From a virus (Duplodnaviria; Caudoviricetes), in the IMG/VR virus record IMGVR_UViG_3300011217_000001, positions 96,001 through 160,000 of that record: 64,000 nucleotides of DNA. One strand, 5' to 3'. The translations under genes and the position numbers were made by a program. Below, in pieces: positions 1-8,092 of this stretch; position 1 is the stretch's first letter; every line of letters begins with the position of its first letter. The notes beneath the pieces were generated by a model that was not told where the DNA came from, ran no database searches, and saw only the letters and a list, made by a program, of their open reading frames with translations.

Positions 1-1722
1 GCTAACCAGGACACGCGTCTGCTGTACGTCCCGGCTGAAATGGTGACCTACTTCGCCATCGACTACAACAAGTTCGGCATCGGTCGTTCGCTGCTGGAAG
101 ACACCAAGATCCTCGCAGGCATGCGCGCGATCTTGATGTTCGCCAACACGATGGGTTCGCTGCGTAACTCGGTGGGTCGTACGAAGCTGAACATCAAGCT
201 CGATGAACGTGACGATGATCCGGTGGACACCGTCGAGTTCATCATCGGCGAGTTCTCCAAGAACCGTCAGCAGGCTTACCCGCTGGGCGCTTCCAATCCG
301 TTGGACATCATCTCCTTCCTGCAGAACGCGGGTGTGGAAGTGGTGGTCAGTGGTAACGATGGCTACCCGAACACGGAAGTCAACGCAGAGGACTTCGCAG
401 CACAGGTCAACAAGCCGGATCTGGATCTGGACAACCTGCTGCGCAAGAACCACTCGCTGTCACTGGGTATCCCGGTGGAGATGGTGGACAACGCCCAGGG
501 TCCGGAGTTTGCGACCACGGCAGTGACCAACAACCTGCTGCTGACCAAGCGCGTGATGAAGACGCAGGAACAGTTCTGCCCGCATGTCACCGACTTCGTG
601 CAGAAGTACACCTACAACTCCGGCACGCTGCTGGATCGTCTGCGCAAGATCATCATCGACAACAAGGCCAAGCTGGGTGACGAGGTTCGTCAGTACATCG
701 CGTCCCACGGTCAGGAGCTGAACGTCGACAACGTGGTCAAGCTGTTCATTGATGCCATCATCTGTGAACTGCCGTCTCCGGACACGACCAAGGTCAAGGT
801 TCAGGTCGAGGCTTACAAGGAGTATCGCGAGGCGCTGGACGAAGTGCTGCCGGCCTACATCAGCAAGGAAATGTTCGATGCGGGCAATGACCAGAACACC
901 GACGTTGCCTCGGCCATCGAAGGACTGGTGGCGCTGACCAAGGCTCACTACCTGCGCCAGTACCTGCGTACCAACAACATCATGCCGGAACTGTTCGACC
1001 TGATGGAGCTGGACGAGAAGGGTGTTGGCAAGGTGGACATCTACGAGTCCTCGGCCGAGCACATGAAGGTGATGTACAAGGTCTTCGGCAAGTACATCGA
1101 CAAGATCCAGAAGCTTGTCGAGAAGCGTGAACCTGAAGACGAAACTCCGCCGGATGACACCCCGCCGGGTGGCGAGGAACCGGGCGCTGGCACCGACGAA
1201 TTCGGTATGGATACCGGAACCGAGGATAACCCTGACGAAACTCAGGATACCGGTGAGGAGGAGGAACAGCAGGAGGACGAAGGGCAGGAAGAAGAGGAGC
1301 AGGAGGAGGACACTGGTGAGGAGGAAGAGGCAGCGGATGATACCACCGATGCTGCTGACACCGGCGAAGCAGAGGAGGAAGCCTCCACTGAATCGATCGA
1401 CAACCTCTACCAGGAAGCCGACGATCGCACCTACTTCTACGATGCTGTGAGTCGTCCGATCAACCCGCTGCTGCGCGCTGCCCACAACATCGAGCCTGAA
1501 CTGATCGAAGTGAGGGACATGCGCTTCAACCTGCAGCAGGCTGGTTCGCTCTCCCCGCGTCTGGTCACTCGTGCCGACTACAGCTACCCGCTGATCGGCG
1601 TGCGTGAGGAAGATGGCCGTGTGGTCATCCTCGATGGCATGAAGCGTCTTGCTCATGCCAACACCGATGGCGCCTTCCGTCTGCCCGTCAAGCTCGTCTC
1701 GATGGAACAGGCCAAGCGTTAA
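1..1722 (+). CDS. Portal protein (phiKZ gp129-like), 5'-truncated by window edge, with acidic linker and C-terminal ParB/Srx-like domain
   Basis: Frame open from base 1 (ANQDTRLLYVPAEM...). YFAIDY..GIGRSLL segment and position next to the nvRNAP/capsid/helicase block match the phiKZ layout. C-terminal 'YPLIGV..DGRVVILDGMKRL' resembles ParB N-domain. Confidence 0.7.
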   Translation, partial: ANQDTRLLYVPAEMVTYFAIDYNKFGIGRSLLEDTKILAGMRAILMFANTMGSLRNSVGRTKLNIKLDERDDDPVDTVEFIIGEFSKNRQQAYPLGASNPLDIISFLQNAGVEVVVSGNDGYPNTEVNAEDFAAQVNKPDLDLDNLLRKNHSLSLGIPVEMVDNAQGPEFATTAVTNNLLLTKRVMKTQEQFCPHVTDFVQKYTYNSGTLLDRLRKIIIDNKAKLGDEVRQYIASHGQELNVDNVVKLFIDAIICELPSPDTTKVKVQVEAYKEYREALDEVLPAYISKEMFDAGNDQNTDVASAIEGLVALTKAHYLRQYLRTNNIMPELFDLMELDEKGVGKVDIYESSAEHMKVMYKVFGKYIDKIQKLVEKREPEDETPPDDTPPGGEEPGAGTDEFGMDTGTEDNPDETQDTGEEEEQQEDEGQEEEEQEEDTGEEEEAADDTTDAADTGEAEEEASTESIDNLYQEADDRTYFYDAVSRPINPLLRAAHNIEPELIEVRDMRFNLQQAGSLSPRLVTRADYSYPLIGVREEDGRVVILDGMKRLAHANTDGAFRLPVKLVSMEQAKR

Positions 1723-1730
1723 TAGGAACT

Positions 1731-1761
1731 GGGAGGCCCTTCGGGGCCTCCCTCTATGTCC
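1731..1761 (+). terminator. Hairpin plus TATGTC after portal gene
   Basis: GGGAGGCCC-TTCG-GGGCCTCCC then TCTATGTCC. Confidence 0.7.
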
Positions 1762-1853
1762 TGAAGACAAAAAAAAAGAAGACGGTAAAAAAGAGCCCAC
1801 CCCCCGGATAGGAGTGGGCTAAAGCGCCTATGTCACCAGGCGATATGAAGTTG

Positions 1854-3088: not shown

Positions 3089-5293
3089 TCAGCCCATGAT
3101 GTCGACAGGCGACGGCGACAGCACGTAGTGGCTGTTGTTGAAGAAGCCGACCTGCAGATCGTACACCACGTTGTCCTCGGTCACGAGGTAGCGGTGGCAG
3201 AACTCACCACCCACGATCGCCGTGCGCTGAAGCAGACGATCCAGCGAGCTGTGCAGGGCCGGGTACAGCTTCTCCGACACCACACCGCCATTGACCAGGG
3301 ACGGACCCATGTCCGCACTGGACCAGCTCAACAGCGTCACCGACTGGCGACGAGCGAAGACCAGCCAATGCATGCCGGCGCCGGGCTTGCCGTACTCTTC
3401 GGTGTAACGAGCCAGCTCGTCATCCTTGAGCACGCGCATCACGGCGTTGATCACTTCATCGACCTTGGAGTTCAGCAGGTTGGCAGCCGCCACACCGACA
3501 GCCGGCTTGGCCTGCATCGTCTTCAGCAGATCACCGAAGTCGTCAGCTGCGGTATCGATGGTCCAGCTCAGACCCATCGAGTTCTTCAGGACGTAGTTGA
3601 TGCGGGCGGTCAGAGCATCGTTGAGCTGATGCCACAGACGGACCGGCACATCTTCCTGACCCTGCAGCTGGCTGAACTTGGCCAGTGCGGCCTGCACGGT
3701 CTTTTCCTTGCCGATGGCCAGGAACGTACCGATCAGGTTGGCCTCGGTCAAGTGCGGGGTGAGGATGTCGATGTAGAACTCCTTGGGAGTGTCTTCACCG
3801 TCGTTCTCACCGTCCACCGACACCACTTCGGTCATTGCGATGGCCTGAGCCACCGACATGGCCGGAACCGTGGTTGCAACGTCGCCGATATCCATGTCGG
3901 CGCCGAACACCAGCTGGTTGAAGGCGTCTTCATCACCCTCTTCCGCACCTTCCGGCTTGACCGGCTCGGTGCCGACCATCTTTTCGCCCTTCTTGTGCAT
4001 GTTGGCCACCAGATCGTAGCGGGGATCCACACGACCCTGGCGACGCTGATGCTGCGCCTTGGTCTTGAGGTTGTCGTTGGTTTCCAGGTCCAGGTAGTCC
4101 ATGTCTTCGTTGCGCTCTTTCACGATTTCCTCGACACGACCATCCGGATAGATCCGGTGGAACTTGACGAAGAGGTTGGGGTCGTAGACCTGGGCGAACG
4201 GCTGCTCAGGGCTGAAGGTCTTCTTGTAGGTGCTCAGCACTTCCGGAATGACGAAGGAACCGTCTTCCAGATCGACGCGGTCATAGGGACGACCATTGCG
4301 GATGTTCTCGCGCAGGGTTGCATCCTTGTCCGATTCTGCTGCGCTCACGGTACGACCGGCACTACGATCGAACAGCTTCGGCATCGCCGGACCCTTCTTG
4401 GCGTCAGCCTTGCGCTGTGCTTCGTGGTTCTGGTAGTTGCTACCACGCGGCGAGGCATGCAGCTCTTCTTCCACCGCATGCAGGTCGTTGCCAGAGACCT
4501 CTTCCACTGCACTGGAGGAGAACTCACGGCTGCGATCTTCGCGCGGAGTGTCGCGACGGCTACGGCGATCTTCACGATCTGCACGATCGTTCTTGCTGTT
4601 GCTGGCACGAACCGCGCCAGCCATGCCGCCCCGACGGGTTGCCGTTGCTTCTTCTTCTTCATCGCGACGACGCCCACCGCTGTCACGATAGCCACGGGTG
4701 CCGTTGCCATGGTAACCGCCATCTTCACGACCACGGCCACGACCGCCACCACGACGATCATCACGGTCATCGCGGTCACGGCCGCGACCACCACGGCGAC
4801 TGCCACGGTTGAAGTCTTCGATGTCAGCGATCAGATCACGGCCATCTTCCATGGCATCATCGAGTTCACGACCCATGCGACCATCGACGTACTCATCCAG
4901 CTCGCGGTACTTCTCCACGTACAACGCCATGGTGAAGCGCACCACGATCTTGGTAGCCTTGCGCAGGGCCTCGTCGGCCTCCATGCGCTCGCCTTCGTAG
5001 AAGAAGAAGAAGGCTTCGGCAACCGACCCGACCAGACGGTCGTAGTCTTCGTTGTCGAATTCCTGGTCGGCCATCATGTTGTACAGGAAGTTGCGCAGCT
5101 CGTGACGGCCGTACTCTTCCTGCAGCTCACGCAGCACCGTGCCGGCGATCAGCGGCAGGTCGCGCTCGATGGCGCCGGGGACTTGGATATTGGGGATGTA
5201 GCGGTCCGGGATGCGCTCGGGCAGTCCACGGACGAAATAGCCTTTGTCGACAAACTCCGGGTCGACGGGAAGGCGGGAACGAGAACGTGACAT
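3089..5293 (-). CDS. Conserved phiKZ-like hypothetical protein downstream of nvRNAP beta subunit, with R/G/D-rich disordered segment
   Basis: 734-aa ORF in the core block; low-complexity RRGGRGRDRDD tract. Confidence 0.75.
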   Translation of the reverse strand: MSRSRSRLPVDPEFVDKGYFVRGLPERIPDRYIPNIQVPGAIERDLPLIAGTVLRELQEEYGRHELRNFLYNMMADQEFDNEDYDRLVGSVAEAFFFFYEGERMEADEALRKATKIVVRFTMALYVEKYRELDEYVDGRMGRELDDAMEDGRDLIADIEDFNRGSRRGGRGRDRDDRDDRRGGGRGRGREDGGYHGNGTRGYRDSGGRRRDEEEEATATRRGGMAGAVRASNSKNDRADREDRRSRRDTPREDRSREFSSSAVEEVSGNDLHAVEEELHASPRGSNYQNHEAQRKADAKKGPAMPKLFDRSAGRTVSAAESDKDATLRENIRNGRPYDRVDLEDGSFVIPEVLSTYKKTFSPEQPFAQVYDPNLFVKFHRIYPDGRVEEIVKERNEDMDYLDLETNDNLKTKAQHQRRQGRVDPRYDLVANMHKKGEKMVGTEPVKPEGAEEGDEDAFNQLVFGADMDIGDVATTVPAMSVAQAIAMTEVVSVDGENDGEDTPKEFYIDILTPHLTEANLIGTFLAIGKEKTVQAALAKFSQLQGQEDVPVRLWHQLNDALTARINYVLKNSMGLSWTIDTAADDFGDLLKTMQAKPAVGVAAANLLNSKVDEVINAVMRVLKDDELARYTEEYGKPGAGMHWLVFARRQSVTLLSWSSADMGPSLVNGGVVSEKLYPALHSSLDRLLQRTAIVGGEFCHRYLVTEDNVVYDLQVGFFNNSHYVLSPSPVDIMG

Positions 5294-5319
5294 TTTTGGC
5301 TTACTCCGCAGTTCTTGGC

Positions 5320-6942
5320 TTAACGCCGTTGGATTCTTTGTTGCACGTCATCCAGGATCGGACGAAGCGCGGGCGATCTTTCCACCAGTCCATCGTGGGA
5401 CAGGCGCACGTACACATTGGCGCGGTCCCGACCAGTGGGATCACTCTTAGACATATTTCGGAAACTACCCACCTCGGCCATGGAGGAGTGCAGCTGTCTT
5501 GCCGGGTCGCTCATGCTTCCCTTATTGCCACCACGACCACCCGTTGTACTGGTCTGGGCCACCAGACGCGAGGTAATCTTGAAGACCTTGTTGTCACCAG
5601 GGCACGTTACCGAAGTAACTTCGTTGTGCGTGGGCTGATTGAGCTGGAAGATCAGGTCAGTCCGCAGATTACGCCGAAGCTCGGCGTTGATCTCCTTGGG
5701 ATTCAAGATCGGCTTCTTCGAGTTGCGCAGGTTGAAGCTGAAGTTGTAGATCGCCTTGTTGATGTCAAAGACGATGTACCTCAGGATCACGAACTGCTTG
5801 CCGTACATGCTGGCAATGTCCTTTGCATTACCGGTCAGTCGGCCATGGAAGGTGTCGATCATGTGGAAGAACAGGTCATAGACCGTCTCCACGATCACTC
5901 CATCTTCCAGGAGCTTCTTGCGCGAGTTGCGATCCATGTAGGTGTCGAGCGATGCAAGGTGATCGTCCAACCGCTCCAGGATCTTACCCTCACTCTGGCC
6001 TTCGCCGAACAGGAAGATGCCGAGTGCGAGCTGCCATCGGGTGATGTCAAGTGCGAACTCCAGCGGGAACCGTTCGGGGAAGTGGTCGATGGCATAGAAG
6101 AAACTGCCGACCAGAATGTGCACAGCGTCCGAATAGTTCTCCCGAGGGATTGCCATGCGGATGTCCGAGACCGGATGACCGATCTTCAGACGAACCCCCT
6201 GAGGCTTGATCTGTGCCGAGGAGAAGATCACCCAGTCTTTCTTCGGGTAAGCCTCCTCAGTGATCGTTGCCGAGTCGCCCACGACGATGTTGGTGCCTCC
6301 GTACTGCTTGAAGGTCTCCTCAACGCCATAGCGACAGAACAGGTAGTGTGCCATCGTCGAGTTACCACGGATCGGCTGGCGGGCCAGTTCAGCTTTGCCC
6401 TCCGCCGTGTGGTTGTACAACGAGGCATGGATCAAGTGCGCGTCAACCTGAATGCTGTCACGCATGAAGGTGTAATACATTCGCTCGAAGGTGAGCTTGG
6501 CGCCTTGCAATGGAATGAAGATCGATGTGGCATTGATGCTGAATACCCTGTCCGCCAAAACAGGTGCTACTGCAAACAGCGAGCCACGCAGATACATCAG
6601 ACCGCCGTCCATGACGTTGGGCAGGAAGATGTACCTGGGGTCAAGAGGCTGACCCATGTAACTGAACATGTACTTGTTCAGGTGTGCGCTGGTCTTAGCA
6701 GTTTCCCAAGTCCTTTGGCTGTTGACGCGCTTGGTGATCTCCCTGAACGTCTCCCTCGGGGTACAGCGAACGAATCCGTCGTACTTCAGCCCTTCCGGGA
6801 AACCGGCGGCTGCCGTGCGGAAGATGTCATCCACCATCTTGTCCACATAGGGCACATGCTTGGTTGCCAGGCCGTTGGCAATGTCAGGGTTAAGTCGTGG
6901 AGTGACTTCCCTGAGCAGCCTGGAGTAATGTTTGTCCGTCAT
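5320..6942 (-). CDS. Non-virion RNA polymerase beta-like subunit, N-terminal part (phiKZ gp123-like)
   Basis: 540 aa; YIFLP..GGLMYLRGS and LHSSMAEVGS...PTGRDRANVY resemble RpoB N-terminal regions; synteny with capsid and helicase. Confidence 0.8.
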   Translation of the reverse strand: MTDKHYSRLLREVTPRLNPDIANGLATKHVPYVDKMVDDIFRTAAAGFPEGLKYDGFVRCTPRETFREITKRVNSQRTWETAKTSAHLNKYMFSYMGQPLDPRYIFLPNVMDGGLMYLRGSLFAVAPVLADRVFSINATSIFIPLQGAKLTFERMYYTFMRDSIQVDAHLIHASLYNHTAEGKAELARQPIRGNSTMAHYLFCRYGVEETFKQYGGTNIVVGDSATITEEAYPKKDWVIFSSAQIKPQGVRLKIGHPVSDIRMAIPRENYSDAVHILVGSFFYAIDHFPERFPLEFALDITRWQLALGIFLFGEGQSEGKILERLDDHLASLDTYMDRNSRKKLLEDGVIVETVYDLFFHMIDTFHGRLTGNAKDIASMYGKQFVILRYIVFDINKAIYNFSFNLRNSKKPILNPKEINAELRRNLRTDLIFQLNQPTHNEVTSVTCPGDNKVFKITSRLVAQTSTTGGRGGNKGSMSDPARQLHSSMAEVGSFRNMSKSDPTGRDRANVYVRLSHDGLVERSPALRPILDDVQQRIQRR

Positions 6943-6970
6943 CTCTTCCTCGGGCTAAGGATGGTTGTTG

Positions 6971-8092
6971 CTAATTCTTGTTGCTGAACATCGAGAACGC
7001 TTTTACGCCTGTGACGATTACACCAATCGCTGTCAGTATGGCTGGCACCGATTTCCAGAACTCAGTATGCTCTTTCCGGGATAGTGAGACCTCTTCAGAT
7101 CGTTCCTTCCTCAGCAGCATTTCCATGCTCCGGTGGTGGTTAATGAGATCAGATTCGCGTTTGATCTCGGTCAAGGTTTGGACGTTCTCCATGTCCTTTG
7201 TCTTGAACTGTTGTGTCGCCTCTTCCCGCTTACGCTCTTGTTCCGCCTTCCAGTCGCCGAGAGATTCGGCGTCACGATAGCTTCCATAGAGTCGATACTT
7301 CTTCCGTGCATCTTCGAGAGTGCACCACTCCAAGACCGGAGAGGATGGGAAGTTAGCACCCGCCGTAGCTGGCGGTCGCGTAAGGACATAAACGCCGTCA
7401 TCTACCCCCGGTACGCTCACAGGGTGGACGTCATGAATGACACCATTGAGATTCAGATACTGCGTGCCGTGCCTGCCGTTATTGTCGACTAGCTTGATGT
7501 TGAATCCGAAGTAGCCTTCTCGGGCTTCTTCTTTGTCTTTGGCATACAGTCGTTCGATATTACTTTCCACAGACCGCGGATGAACAATCACACTGTCCAA
7601 ATCTGCTTCCGAGAAGACCATGTCGACTTCACGGATATAGAACGCACCACCATTGTCCCTAAGGTCTTCCCGAGTGAAGGTGATGTGCAGACTGCGAGTA
7701 CGCCGGAACTTCTCCTGCATCTCTCGCGAATTGTCCAGTGCTTCGATCAGTGCTCTACGCACCCTAGTCTGATTTTCGGCTACTCCAGAAGATACTGAAG
7801 AGATGTCGACATTTACAGAATGATGCCATCTGTAGACGATAACGATCTCAAATACCCCGTCTACCCTCTTACGCGAATAAGAAGGTACACTCGCTTTAAC
7901 CCCCAATACATCAGTCGAATCAACGGTGATCCCGAGACCGTTGTGGAAACTGATGTCCTTACTGTACCAGGAAGGGTTTTCCGCAGCCATTCGCTTGTTT
8001 GATTCCACGCGCAGGTTCTCGCTCTCCCGAGTGACCACTGCACGGAATACTCTACCCATGGCATTCCCTAAAAAGTTGTATGGAACTTCCAA
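6971..8092 (-). CDS. Conserved phiKZ-like protein with C-terminal coiled coil and membrane anchor
   Basis: 373 aa between capsid and nvRNAP genes; hydrophobic C-terminus VPAILTAIGVIVTGV; start codon uncertain. Confidence 0.7.
   Translation of the reverse strand: MEVPYNFLGNAMGRVFRAVVTRESENLRVESNKRMAAENPSWYSKDISFHNGLGITVDSTDVLGVKASVPSYSRKRVDGVFEIVIVYRWHHSVNVDISSVSSGVAENQTRVRRALIEALDNSREMQEKFRRTRSLHITFTREDLRDNGGAFYIREVDMVFSEADLDSVIVHPRSVESNIERLYAKDKEEAREGYFGFNIKLVDNNGRHGTQYLNLNGVIHDVHPVSVPGVDDGVYVLTRPPATAGANFPSSPVLEWCTLEDARKKYRLYGSYRDAESLGDWKAEQERKREEATQQFKTKDMENVQTLTEIKRESDLINHHRSMEMLLRKERSEEVSLSRKEHTEFWKSVPAILTAIGVIVTGVKAFSMFSNKN

Follow-up and report, generated by a model that had tools for sequence, protein, structure and literature searches.

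The locus examined here raises the question of why a jumbo-phage portal protein continues past its acidic C-terminal tail into a second folded domain of the ParB/Srx type, and what such a domain could do at the portal of a virion. The window (the whole stretch of 64,000 nt that was analysed, positions 96,001 to 160,000 of IMG/VR record IMGVR_UViG_3300011217_000001) is open in + strand frame 1 from its first base to a TAA at 1720-1722, and these nucleotides (window 1-1722, +) form the 3' part of an ORF of 1045 aa (P0001). The coordinates of a first-pass annotation of this DNA were correct, with the sole amendment that the portal-fusion gene is truncated by the window's left edge, its start lying 1416 nt upstream (G000:C1:94585). 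The features are listed below, with a slash marking the putative cut.

1..1125, + strand: C-terminal half of the portal body, residues 473-847, comprising stem/clip, wing end and helical crown (phmmer to PDB, phrog_3004)
1126..1392, + strand: acidic disordered portal C-tail, residues 848-936 (composition, AF2)
1375..1398, + strand: invariant junction E-E-A-S-T-E/S-I, candidate prohead-protease site (relatives, AF2)
between 1392 and 1393, + strand: putative cut in EEASTE/S
1393..1719, + strand: ParB/Srx-fold domain (PHROG 17560), residues 937-1045 (phrog_17560, AF2, Foldseek, VIA-align)
1633..1647, + strand: D-G-M-K-R, the ParB/Srx phosphate-binding loop as it reads in the fused domain (alignment A1)
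1720..1722, + strand: stop codon TAA, followed by an in-frame TAG
1731..1752, no strand assigned: GC-rich hairpin (9-bp stem, 8 GC pairs) in the gap that separates the portal gene from the convergent gene downstream of it

The hairpin is a likely terminator. RNA-library contigs span 1314-1583, and as DNA can occur in such libraries they were not counted as a sign of transcription. Separate expression of the domain from an internal start was considered and rejected, there being no Met between FGMD in the tail (about residue 873) and the domain.

A phiKZ-type portal with the acidic tail of its family

When searched against the PDB with phmmer, residues 1-847 matched the phiKZ gp129 portal (PDB 9xpe, 12 chains) with an E value of 3e-122, Goslar gp36 (11ed) at 4e-107 and 36za at 2e-104, and phrog_3004 also matched the portal body (E 1e-121). 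By homology, then, the N-terminal part is a portal, as had been proposed, and specifically one of the phiKZ/Goslar (T4 gp20-like) type. As phiKZ gp129 has been solved as a dodecamer (PMC13250141), the portal described here would, by analogy with its homologues (PMC13250141; Goslar preprint), likewise be a dodecamer at the unique capsid vertex. In the solved relatives the model spans from near the N-terminus to the crown, which is the lumen-facing top of the portal, and the tails are disordered and, for Goslar, unmodelled (Goslar preprint).

The 90 aa that follow the portal body (residues 848-937, window 1126-1395) include 29 Glu, 14 Asp and a single Lys/Arg, i.e., 48% Asp/Glu, and an AF2 prediction of residues 700-1045 rendered residues 860-936 as coil with pLDDT below 50. 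The first-pass annotation had read this Glu/Asp tract of about 90 aa as a linker; its existence is borne out by the 43 acidic residues in 90 aa, but it is not a special linker, being the C-tail common to portals of this family. A disordered acidic C-tail of 60-330 aa is present in every portal of the gp129-type family, with similar tails in DT01, RTH11, RP31, 201phi2-1, phiKZ and upwards of 100 metagenomic portals. In four relatives of the fused portal the tail shows a pN of 0.18-0.32 with in-frame indels, and its length and sequence differ from one relative to the next while the frame is always kept. Both phiKZ gp129 and Goslar gp36 are homologous to the fused portal along the whole body and carry a helical crown and then an acidic disordered C-tail, as here, but they stop after that tail (at 896 and 969 aa, respectively), whereas the fused portal adds a folded domain of 109 aa. 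The ParB/Srx domain is an addition at the end of a family-typical acidic portal tail, and in the model this tail of about 90 residues looks like a flexible tether from which the domain would fold independently.

The added domain has a ParB/Srx fold

The last ~109 aa (residues 937-1045, 12.5 kDa) are modelled by AF2 with high confidence (pLDDT 90.7, pTM 0.82) as a single ParB/Srx domain, in which a family-specific N-terminal part bearing YQE (1408-1416) precedes the ParB/Srx core (about 1489-1719) and in which YPLIGV...DGRVVILDGMKRL is found. The structural matches of the model agree with the first-pass assignment of this region to ParB/Srx. In a Foldseek search of the PDB the top 50 matches were all ParB/Srx, but with E values of at least 5.7e-3, and VIA-align returned just 12 PDB chains with Z>=2, of which 11 were ParB/Srx, with Z scores of 8.2 for sulfiredoxin, 7.5 for KorB, 7.3 for SerK and 6.6 for SbnI. 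A BFVD match was EL gp75, which is named "ParB/Sulfiredoxin domain-containing". In profile comparisons phrog_17560 matched the domain (E 3e-9), and the PHROG 17560 family profile in turn reached solved SbnI (E 4.4e-6). On these grounds the predicted fold is ParB/Srx and the family is the phage-specific PHROG 17560.

Pfam and NCBIfam scans of the fused domain gave no match at E<=1, and phmmer of the single domain sequence against the PDB returned only noise. Members of PHROG 17560 matched Pfam ParBc_2 only below threshold (best 0.0067), and matched the SbnI/SerK NCBIfam models only over the N-domain (best 2e-5, with bit scores of 13-24 against cut-offs of 350-380). An hhalign comparison of the profile of alignment A1 with P1 DdrB, the prototype of the "DdrB-like ParB" family of PMC5512222, returned a probability of 0.7% in what is a weak test given its single-sequence target; as no similarity was detected, we have not assigned the domain to that family.

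Alignment A1, from which P0003 and P0023 were left out as RTX/repeat proteins and false positives of the representative search, has D84, G85 and R88 invariant or nearly so (G85 and R88 fully), with DGxHR as the family consensus. The DGxxR-type motif that had been noted from the sequence is indeed there as DGMKR, which aligns with DGVHR of SbnI; in canonical ParB the loop reads GERR. H87 is replaced by K in every portal-fused copy, and the fused copy departs from the family at two further nearly invariant positions (W48F, and R60, which is shifted) and sits on a branch of length 1.73. Given this long branch and the changed residues, the fused copy may not have the same activity as the solo members, or may have less of it.

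The core fold and the D/G-G-x-H/R-R phosphate loop are common to the domain and to SbnI/SerK kinases, sulfiredoxin, the ParB/KorB/Noc CTPases and Osa, the nearest relatives in sequence being the SbnI/SerK N-domains. In contrast to these proteins, the domain lacks the second domain of SerK and SbnI (free-serine kinases of two domains and ~245 aa), the catalytic Cys context of sulfiredoxin, and the HTH and dimerisation domains of the ParB clamp, the protein ending 109 residues past the junction. The YQE hairpin-helix element at its N-terminus, which is specific to the family, further sets it apart from ParB/Srx members of known chemistry. The fused domain is probably a nucleotide-binding module. 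The first-pass annotation had also allowed for DNA binding, which finds no backing in a domain without an HTH and with a pI of 5.7 (family median 6.3), and non-specific DNA binding is unlikely.

Distribution and selection of the fusion

The same portal-domain fusion was found in-frame in phage Xoo-sp14, two metagenome contigs and three IMG/VR contigs, giving at least six independent sequences that carry it. An independent contig of 232 kb at depth 21 spans 900-1800 with seven substitutions and no indel within the ORF. The in-frame recurrence in other sequences and this independent contig show that the fusion is not an assembly artefact. A stop codon in the linker, which would have spoken against a true fusion, was not seen, the frame being open in all seven fused sequences.

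Across 104 codons, six pairwise comparisons gave a domain dN/dS of 0.12-0.22 at dS 0.4-0.74, i.e., the domain is under purifying selection as strong as that on the portal body, and the GC content of the domain region is like that of the rest of the portal gene. The fusion is nevertheless rare: among 212 phage records it was found in one, and among 106 database portals in four, in keeping with the earlier remark that it is no standard portal feature. Sister portals of 920-937 aa with 55-57% identity are without the domain, and a single-sequence scan for related loci retrieved only the close fused clade. Conserved and under selection, the fusion is thus limited to a small, Xoo-sp14-like clade among the Xanthomonas jumbo phages, a clade that retains a separate canonical solo paralogue of the domain.

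The same domain on other virion proteins

Members of the PHROG 17560 family occur on their own, as proteins of ~110-130 aa, and also as one module of a virion protein. In phages RP12 and RP31 the domain sits on the N-fragment of the virion RNAP beta' subunit (ORF39, the phiKZ gp180 orthologue), and RP31 ORF39 has been detected in virions by LC-MS/MS; PA5oct gp343, another carrier, is a structural protein by MS. The fused domain matches this group structurally with a TM of 0.86 and an rmsd of 1.4 A, and in both cases, as in the portal, the domain is C-terminal on a virion protein. The carriers are different, a vRNAP subunit in one case and a structural protein of 249 aa in the other, neither has an acidic tether, and both keep the canonical DGxHR where the portal copy has DGMKR. 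Metagenomic proteins add further architectures, namely Phage_portal_3+InPase+GNAT+domain, MuF+domain+T7-like RNAP, domain+MuF, and domain+cell-wall hydrolase. The domain is also joined to LigD-PE and ligase modules, which indicates that a role in the head or in ejection is not the sole context of PHROG 17560. Nothing informative was seen around the gene for P0004, which is the nearest solo relative, and BcepF1, an example of a portal-InPase protein from the literature, gave no match to the family.

These arrangements recall the polyvalent proteins (PMC5512222), among which portal-PBECR, portal-2H and portal-InPase fusions as well as ParB/Srx domains have been described. Like them, the fused portal combines a head anchor with an unrelated, enzyme-like module that also occurs solo and is shuffled among virion proteins in other fusions, and on this basis it belongs with them. 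Unlike them, it has only two modules, joined through a 90-aa acidic tail, and its gp129/gp20-like family, that of the nucleus-forming jumbo phages, is unrelated to the portals in that study. The concept of effectors on portal or MuF modules is therefore not new (PMC5512222). We found no mention of a portal-ParB fusion in that work or in the other literature searched.

The tail-domain junction and the head protease

The stretch across the border between tail and domain reads ...EEASTESIDNLYQ..., with A-S-T-E-S at 1381-1395. The first-pass annotation had proposed a head-protease site here, and the phage does encode a homologue of the phiKZ gp175-type head protease (G000:C1:28702-29379, - strand; E 2.5e-34, 34% identity, open frame of 259 aa). 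The prohead protease of the phiKZ type is specific for S/A/G-x-E (PMC10052503), here present as S-x-E with Ser at P1', and a putative cut at STE/S (residues 934-937) would be expected to leave SIDNLYQEADDR as the new N-terminus. The motif carries little information, however, since the fused portal has 21 copies of S/A/G-x-E, 8 of them in the tail, and its presence alone proves nothing. More suggestive is the fact that EEASTE/S is identical in 7 of 7 fused sequences while the tail preceding it diverges, and that in the AF2 model it sits exactly where the disordered tail meets the folded domain; an invariant, unstructured EEASTESI amid a fast-evolving tail suggests a recognition site. STES also stands near the end of phiKZ gp129 (...EDESTES, four residues before its C-terminus), but it is absent from the family's other portals and we put it down to chance in a Ser/Thr/Glu-rich tail. 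In RP31 ORF39 an A-L-E/G precedes the domain, though the domain stays attached there, the fusion being unprocessed (75.2 kDa predicted, 74 kDa on the gel). We regard release of the domain by the prohead protease at the putative EEASTE/S site as about equally likely to occur or not.

What the portal-borne domain may do

The explanation we favour is that fusion to the portal gets a putative phosphate/nucleotide-binding ParB/Srx module packaged, the portal being its built-in vehicle into the capsid, as in polyvalent proteins that carry effectors on portal or MuF. The solved relatives suggest that the crown and C-terminus of the portal face the capsid lumen, in which case every virion would have twelve copies of the domain in its head, at the portal vertex. 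The module would then act at the interface of portal and DNA end or early in infection, on an NTP, a DNA end or a protein as candidate substrates; it may either be freed at EEASTE/S by the gp175-type protease and exit along with the DNA, or keep its tether. That the domain is cargo, as the first-pass annotation had suggested, is plausible and had been anticipated in the polyvalent-protein literature (PMC5512222). The explanation as a whole, from fused gene and lumen-facing domain to portal as vehicle, we consider moderately probable.

Should the domain never be cleaved, its twelve copies would stay on the portal tails within the head and have a part in assembly, packaging or ejection; possibly they would nucleate or hold internal proteins, or the DNA end that is packaged last, at the portal, or sense nucleotides or the headful state. 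The homologous domain that remains on the vRNAP subunit in RP31 virions fits this, as do the low information of the cleavage motif, the purifying selection, which is as strong on the domain as on the portal body, and the solved relatives' portals, modelled from near the N-terminus to the crown with disordered tails. However, the invariant EEASTESI beside a fast-evolving tail suggests a recognition site, the domain lacks DNA-binding features, and close portal relatives function without it, so that it is not a core portal function. This purely tethered role thus seems possible but rather doubtful.

The most far-reaching reading is that, as the head matures, the gp175-type protease would cut at EEASTE/S and free exactly twelve copies of a nucleotide-dependent ParB/Srx enzyme in the capsid, which would enter the cell with or before the genome as a first-wave effector of a nucleus-forming phage. 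The freed copies would lie at the portal beside the DNA end that is ejected first; they could act on host nucleotides, DNA or defence signalling, or on the incoming genome end before the early vesicle or the phage nucleus has formed. The homologues fused to vRNAP and to MuF would then be one and the same weapon, borne by different carriers. In this specific form we think it unlikely.

That the domain is merely a solo gene read through into the portal gene, neutral or decaying and functionless, might be argued from the narrow distribution, the three substituted positions and long branch, and the canonical solo paralogue that the phage retains. In contrast, the low dN/dS, the seven sequences without a stop or frameshift despite many indels in the adjoining tail, the conserved D, G, R, P and YQE motif with a confident fold, and the GC content shared with the remainder of the gene already disfavour this reading, and we hold it to be very improbable. 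Finally, a Rosetta-stone reading in which the portal-borne domain recruits the phage vRNAP to the portal vertex could draw on the RP12-like vRNAP fusion, on the metagenomic protein with the domain between MuF and a T7-like RNAP, and on the window phage's own gp180 homologue being without the domain, but fusions to GNAT, InPase, hydrolase and ligase modules fit a promiscuous effector and not a dedicated adaptor, and we give it hardly any credence. A predicted complex of the phage's gp180-type vRNAP subunit and the domain scored 0.01, which is below the mark and weighs neither way.

Implications for jumbo phages

Nucleus-forming jumbo phages survive the first minutes of infection on capsid-carried content alone. 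A folded, selected, enzyme-like domain on the lumen side of the portal would be an addition to their known packaged proteins. It is also a tractable case, with a copy number expected to be fixed at 12, a predicted location, a candidate release site and a cultivable isolate in Xoo-sp14. The finding links the portal fusion, the virion-RNAP fusion of RP12/RP31 and PA5oct gp343 as one shuffling module, PHROG 17560, whose biochemistry is worth determining. Finally, a folded passenger at the C-terminus is tolerated by gp129-type portals, a property of use where cargo is to be engineered into the heads of jumbo phages.

A portal protein extended by an acidic tail and a folded domain

The window corresponds to G000:C1:96001-160000 in a 230-kb virus record. 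Frame 1 of the plus strand is open from window base 1 to a TAA at 1720-1722. Once the upstream DNA was fetched, the start of the gene was placed 1416 nt upstream of the window, giving a product (P0001) of 1045 aa. The parts of this protein and a second copy of its C-terminal domain are as follows:

P0001 residues 1-847, plus strand: portal body, from matches to solved jumbo-phage portals
P0001 residues 848-936, window 1126-1392, plus strand: acidic tail, from composition and AF2 disorder
P0001 residues 937-1045, window 1393-1719, plus strand: folded domain, from AF2, Foldseek, a structural aligner and the family profile
G000:C1:167275-167598 (L007:1480-1842), outside the window, minus strand: solo copy of the domain, 120 aa, with DGLHRL and pI 9.7

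The identification of the N-terminal part as a portal in the first-pass annotation is borne out, as residues 1-847 match the dodecameric phiKZ portal gp129 (PDB 9xpe, E 3e-122; assigned as the portal in a structural atlas, PMC13250141), gp36, the portal of Goslar (E 4e-107), and one more jumbo-phage portal. The closest isolate, Xanthomonas phage Xoo-sp14 (82.5% nucleotide identity across 4 kb), is counted among the chimalliviruses in the PicA study, and its 1044-aa orthologue of P0001, gp126, is annotated solely as a "putative virion structural protein".

Residues 299-302 of P0001 (L003:5479-5490, upstream of the window) read A-T-E|S and align to A-T-E|T of phiKZ gp129, making them a candidate N-terminal maturation site by analogy with the cut reported to remove a 254-residue propeptide from SPN3US portal gp81. 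Downstream, two GC-rich hairpins (window 1731-1752 and 1794-1820, the latter with a minus-strand T-run after it) separate the portal gene from a convergent minus-strand gene (1854-2852) and are likely terminators for both. Long antisense ORFs of 446-720 aa (window 460-1800, minus; 1830-2921, 3128-5290 and 5287-6987, plus) are most likely by-products of high GC and codon bias and not genes; the annotated genes of Xoo-sp14 sit only on the opposite strand.

The fusion is real, maintained and rare

The fusion of portal and domain is real and maintained. The in-frame architecture that had been proposed recurs in Xoo-sp14, two metagenome contigs (SRR5431750 and JGI 3300028185) and three IMG/VR contigs, among which is a 234-kb genome that bears terminal repeats. 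Window 900-1800 is also spanned by an independent contig (232 kb, depth 21), which shows seven substitutions, six at third codon positions and one Asn to Ser, and no indel in the ORF. The dN/dS of the domain is 0.12-0.22 at dS 0.4-0.74, that of the portal body is likewise 0.12-0.23, and GC content is uniform along the gene.

The view that such a fusion is not a standard portal feature also holds. The C-terminal half of the portal has homologues in 212 phage records, of which just Xoo-sp14 runs on into the domain, and the domain profile matches 4 of 106 portal homologues (E<=1e-30, from a 5.8-billion-protein set), all four belonging to the clade of Xoo-sp14-like fused sequences. The nearest portals outside this clade (55-57% identity, 920-937 aa) are without the domain.

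The acidic tail is ancestral

Asp and Glu make up 48% of residues 848-936, with one basic residue in total. When residues 700-1045 were modelled with AF2 (pTM 0.36), the crown helices were confident and 860-936 formed coil with pLDDT <50. Among four fused sequences the tail has pN 0.18-0.32 and numerous in-frame indels. The first-pass annotation took this stretch for a linker, but all phiKZ-type portals examined (L011-L014; P0178-P0264) end in acidic low-complexity tails, roughly 60-330 residues long and probably disordered; in some, the last residues form a short patch that is basic or rich in Pro. Portals of 1062-1191 aa were found, the DT01 portal (L011) being 1191 aa, and their added length is a longer acidic low-complexity tail. 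The "linker" is therefore the ancestral tail of gp129-type portals, and what is new is the folded domain that follows it.

The domain has a ParB/Srx fold

Modelled alone from a 40-sequence alignment, residues 937-1045 gave pLDDT 90.7 and pTM 0.82. Foldseek against the PDB placed ParB/Srx proteins (Noc, SbnI, ParB, sulfiredoxin, free serine kinase, PadC and KorB) in all of its top 50 positions, with E-values of 6e-3 at best and otherwise weaker. An independent all-against-all structural aligner returned Z>=2 for just 12 of 48,161 chains, 11 of them ParB/Srx (plant sulfiredoxin 8.2, KorB 7.5, SerK 7.3, human Srx 7.0, PadC 6.8, SbnI 6.6), the matches spanning residues 36-112 of the domain model. 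The family profile matches solved SbnI at E 4.4e-6, placing VVLDGxHRLxKA against VIDGVHRY, and H. pylori ParB at 0.07. Together these agree with the earlier ParB/Srx-like assignment of the last ~110 aa.

The initial ~35 residues (YQE motif, hairpin and helix) are family-specific. The window copy retains Y9, E11, D65, P69, D84, G85 and R88, substitutes K for the nearly invariant H87 and F for W48, and has its Box-I-like Arg displaced by one position; canonical ParB (GERR) likewise has a basic residue at the position equivalent to H87. Pfam and NCBIfam scans gave no match for the window copy, and family members reach just sub-threshold ParBc_2, SbnI and SerK matches in curated libraries, which do not cover this family. 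Its sole name is PHROG 17560, "unknown function". Recurrent sub-threshold links to PF23719, "Antitoxin VapB-like" of Actinomycetota, were also seen (P0018 and Atlas clusters; E 0.0017-0.0046, Atlas TM 0.74).

Possible release and probable position of the domain

Among the genes of the phage is one for a protease homologous to gp175, the head protease of phiKZ (E 2.5e-34), in keeping with the earlier premise of a phiKZ-type protease, and related proteases cleave after A/S/G-x-E with Ser favoured at P1' (PMC10052503). EEASTESI lies at the exact border between disordered tail and folded domain and is the same in 7/7 fused sequences although unstructured. Against cleavage, S/A/G-x-E occurs 21 times in the whole protein and eight times in the tail, and the known cleavage of the SPN3US portal is N-terminal (PMC10052503). 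The virion RNA polymerase fusion of phage RP31 carries A-L-E|G immediately ahead of YQE, and was observed in virions at 74 kDa versus 75.2 kDa predicted; it is therefore uncleaved. Weighing these points, we regard release at the putative site EEASTE|S as plausible, with the chances about evenly balanced.

In the Goslar portal (969 aa) the crown, residues 778-923, sits at the portal top, within the capsid, and the model leaves out the final ~45 residues. By homology to solved portals, the tail and domain of P0001 would face the capsid lumen and, because the portal is dodecameric, a virion would carry twelve domains on flexible tethers. The suggestion of a DNA-binding cargo found no support: the domain is not basic (pI 5.7; family median 6.3) and is without an HTH. 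On these grounds an enzymatic role, or one in binding nucleotides or phosphate, seems likelier to us than non-specific DNA binding.

A module shuffled among different proteins

Some 40 relatives of the domain were found in 1.84 billion representatives (best E 4e-9), the majority solo proteins of 110-130 aa. In the fused relatives it adjoins Phage_portal_3+InPase+GNAT, MuF, GNAT, cell-wall hydrolase or LigD-phosphoesterase/ligase modules, or has MuF on one side and a T7-like RNA polymerase on the other. It also forms the C-terminus of the "RNA polymerase beta prime" protein of RP12, RP31 and FLC, an orthologue of the virion RNAP subunit phiKZ gp180 (37% identity) that was detected in RP31 virions by LC-MS/MS (PMC5468394), and of PA5oct gp343, structural by ESI-MS/MS. 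The annotation of this protein in Ralstonia phage RP31, ORF39 (L004:3330-5324, plus strand), a virion RNA polymerase beta' N-fragment orthologous to phiKZ gp180, is silent on the added domain. Profile scans found no copy in phiKZ, 201phi2-1, DT01 or RTH11. Phage EL gp75 is a solo member; a weak second match in EL (NC_007623, 21595-21735, minus strand; E 4.5e-4), broken by three TAA codons, may be a decayed copy.

Each of three Xoo-sp14-like genomes holds two copies, one portal-fused and one canonical solo (DGLHRL), and in the genome studied here these are just 24% identical. The solo copy adjoins a thymidylate-synthase-like gene and is kept in Xoo-sp14 (MT939492:26202-26534) and the third complete genome. 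The fused copies group tightly in a maximum-likelihood tree, at the end of a long branch (1.73), and the resident solo gene is not their sister.

Occurring solo and shuffled onto varied proteins, the PHROG 17560 domain behaves as described for the modules of polyvalent proteins, which are predicted to be packaged and injected and whose catalogue includes portal-PBECR, portal-2H and portal-InPase fusions as well as ParB/Srx domains (PMC5512222). Comparison of the family profile with the single P1 DdrB sequence, prototype of the polyvalent ParB subgroup, detected no similarity. The portal-domain fusion is a new, narrowly distributed case of a known theme, that of effector-like modules on head-anchoring proteins.
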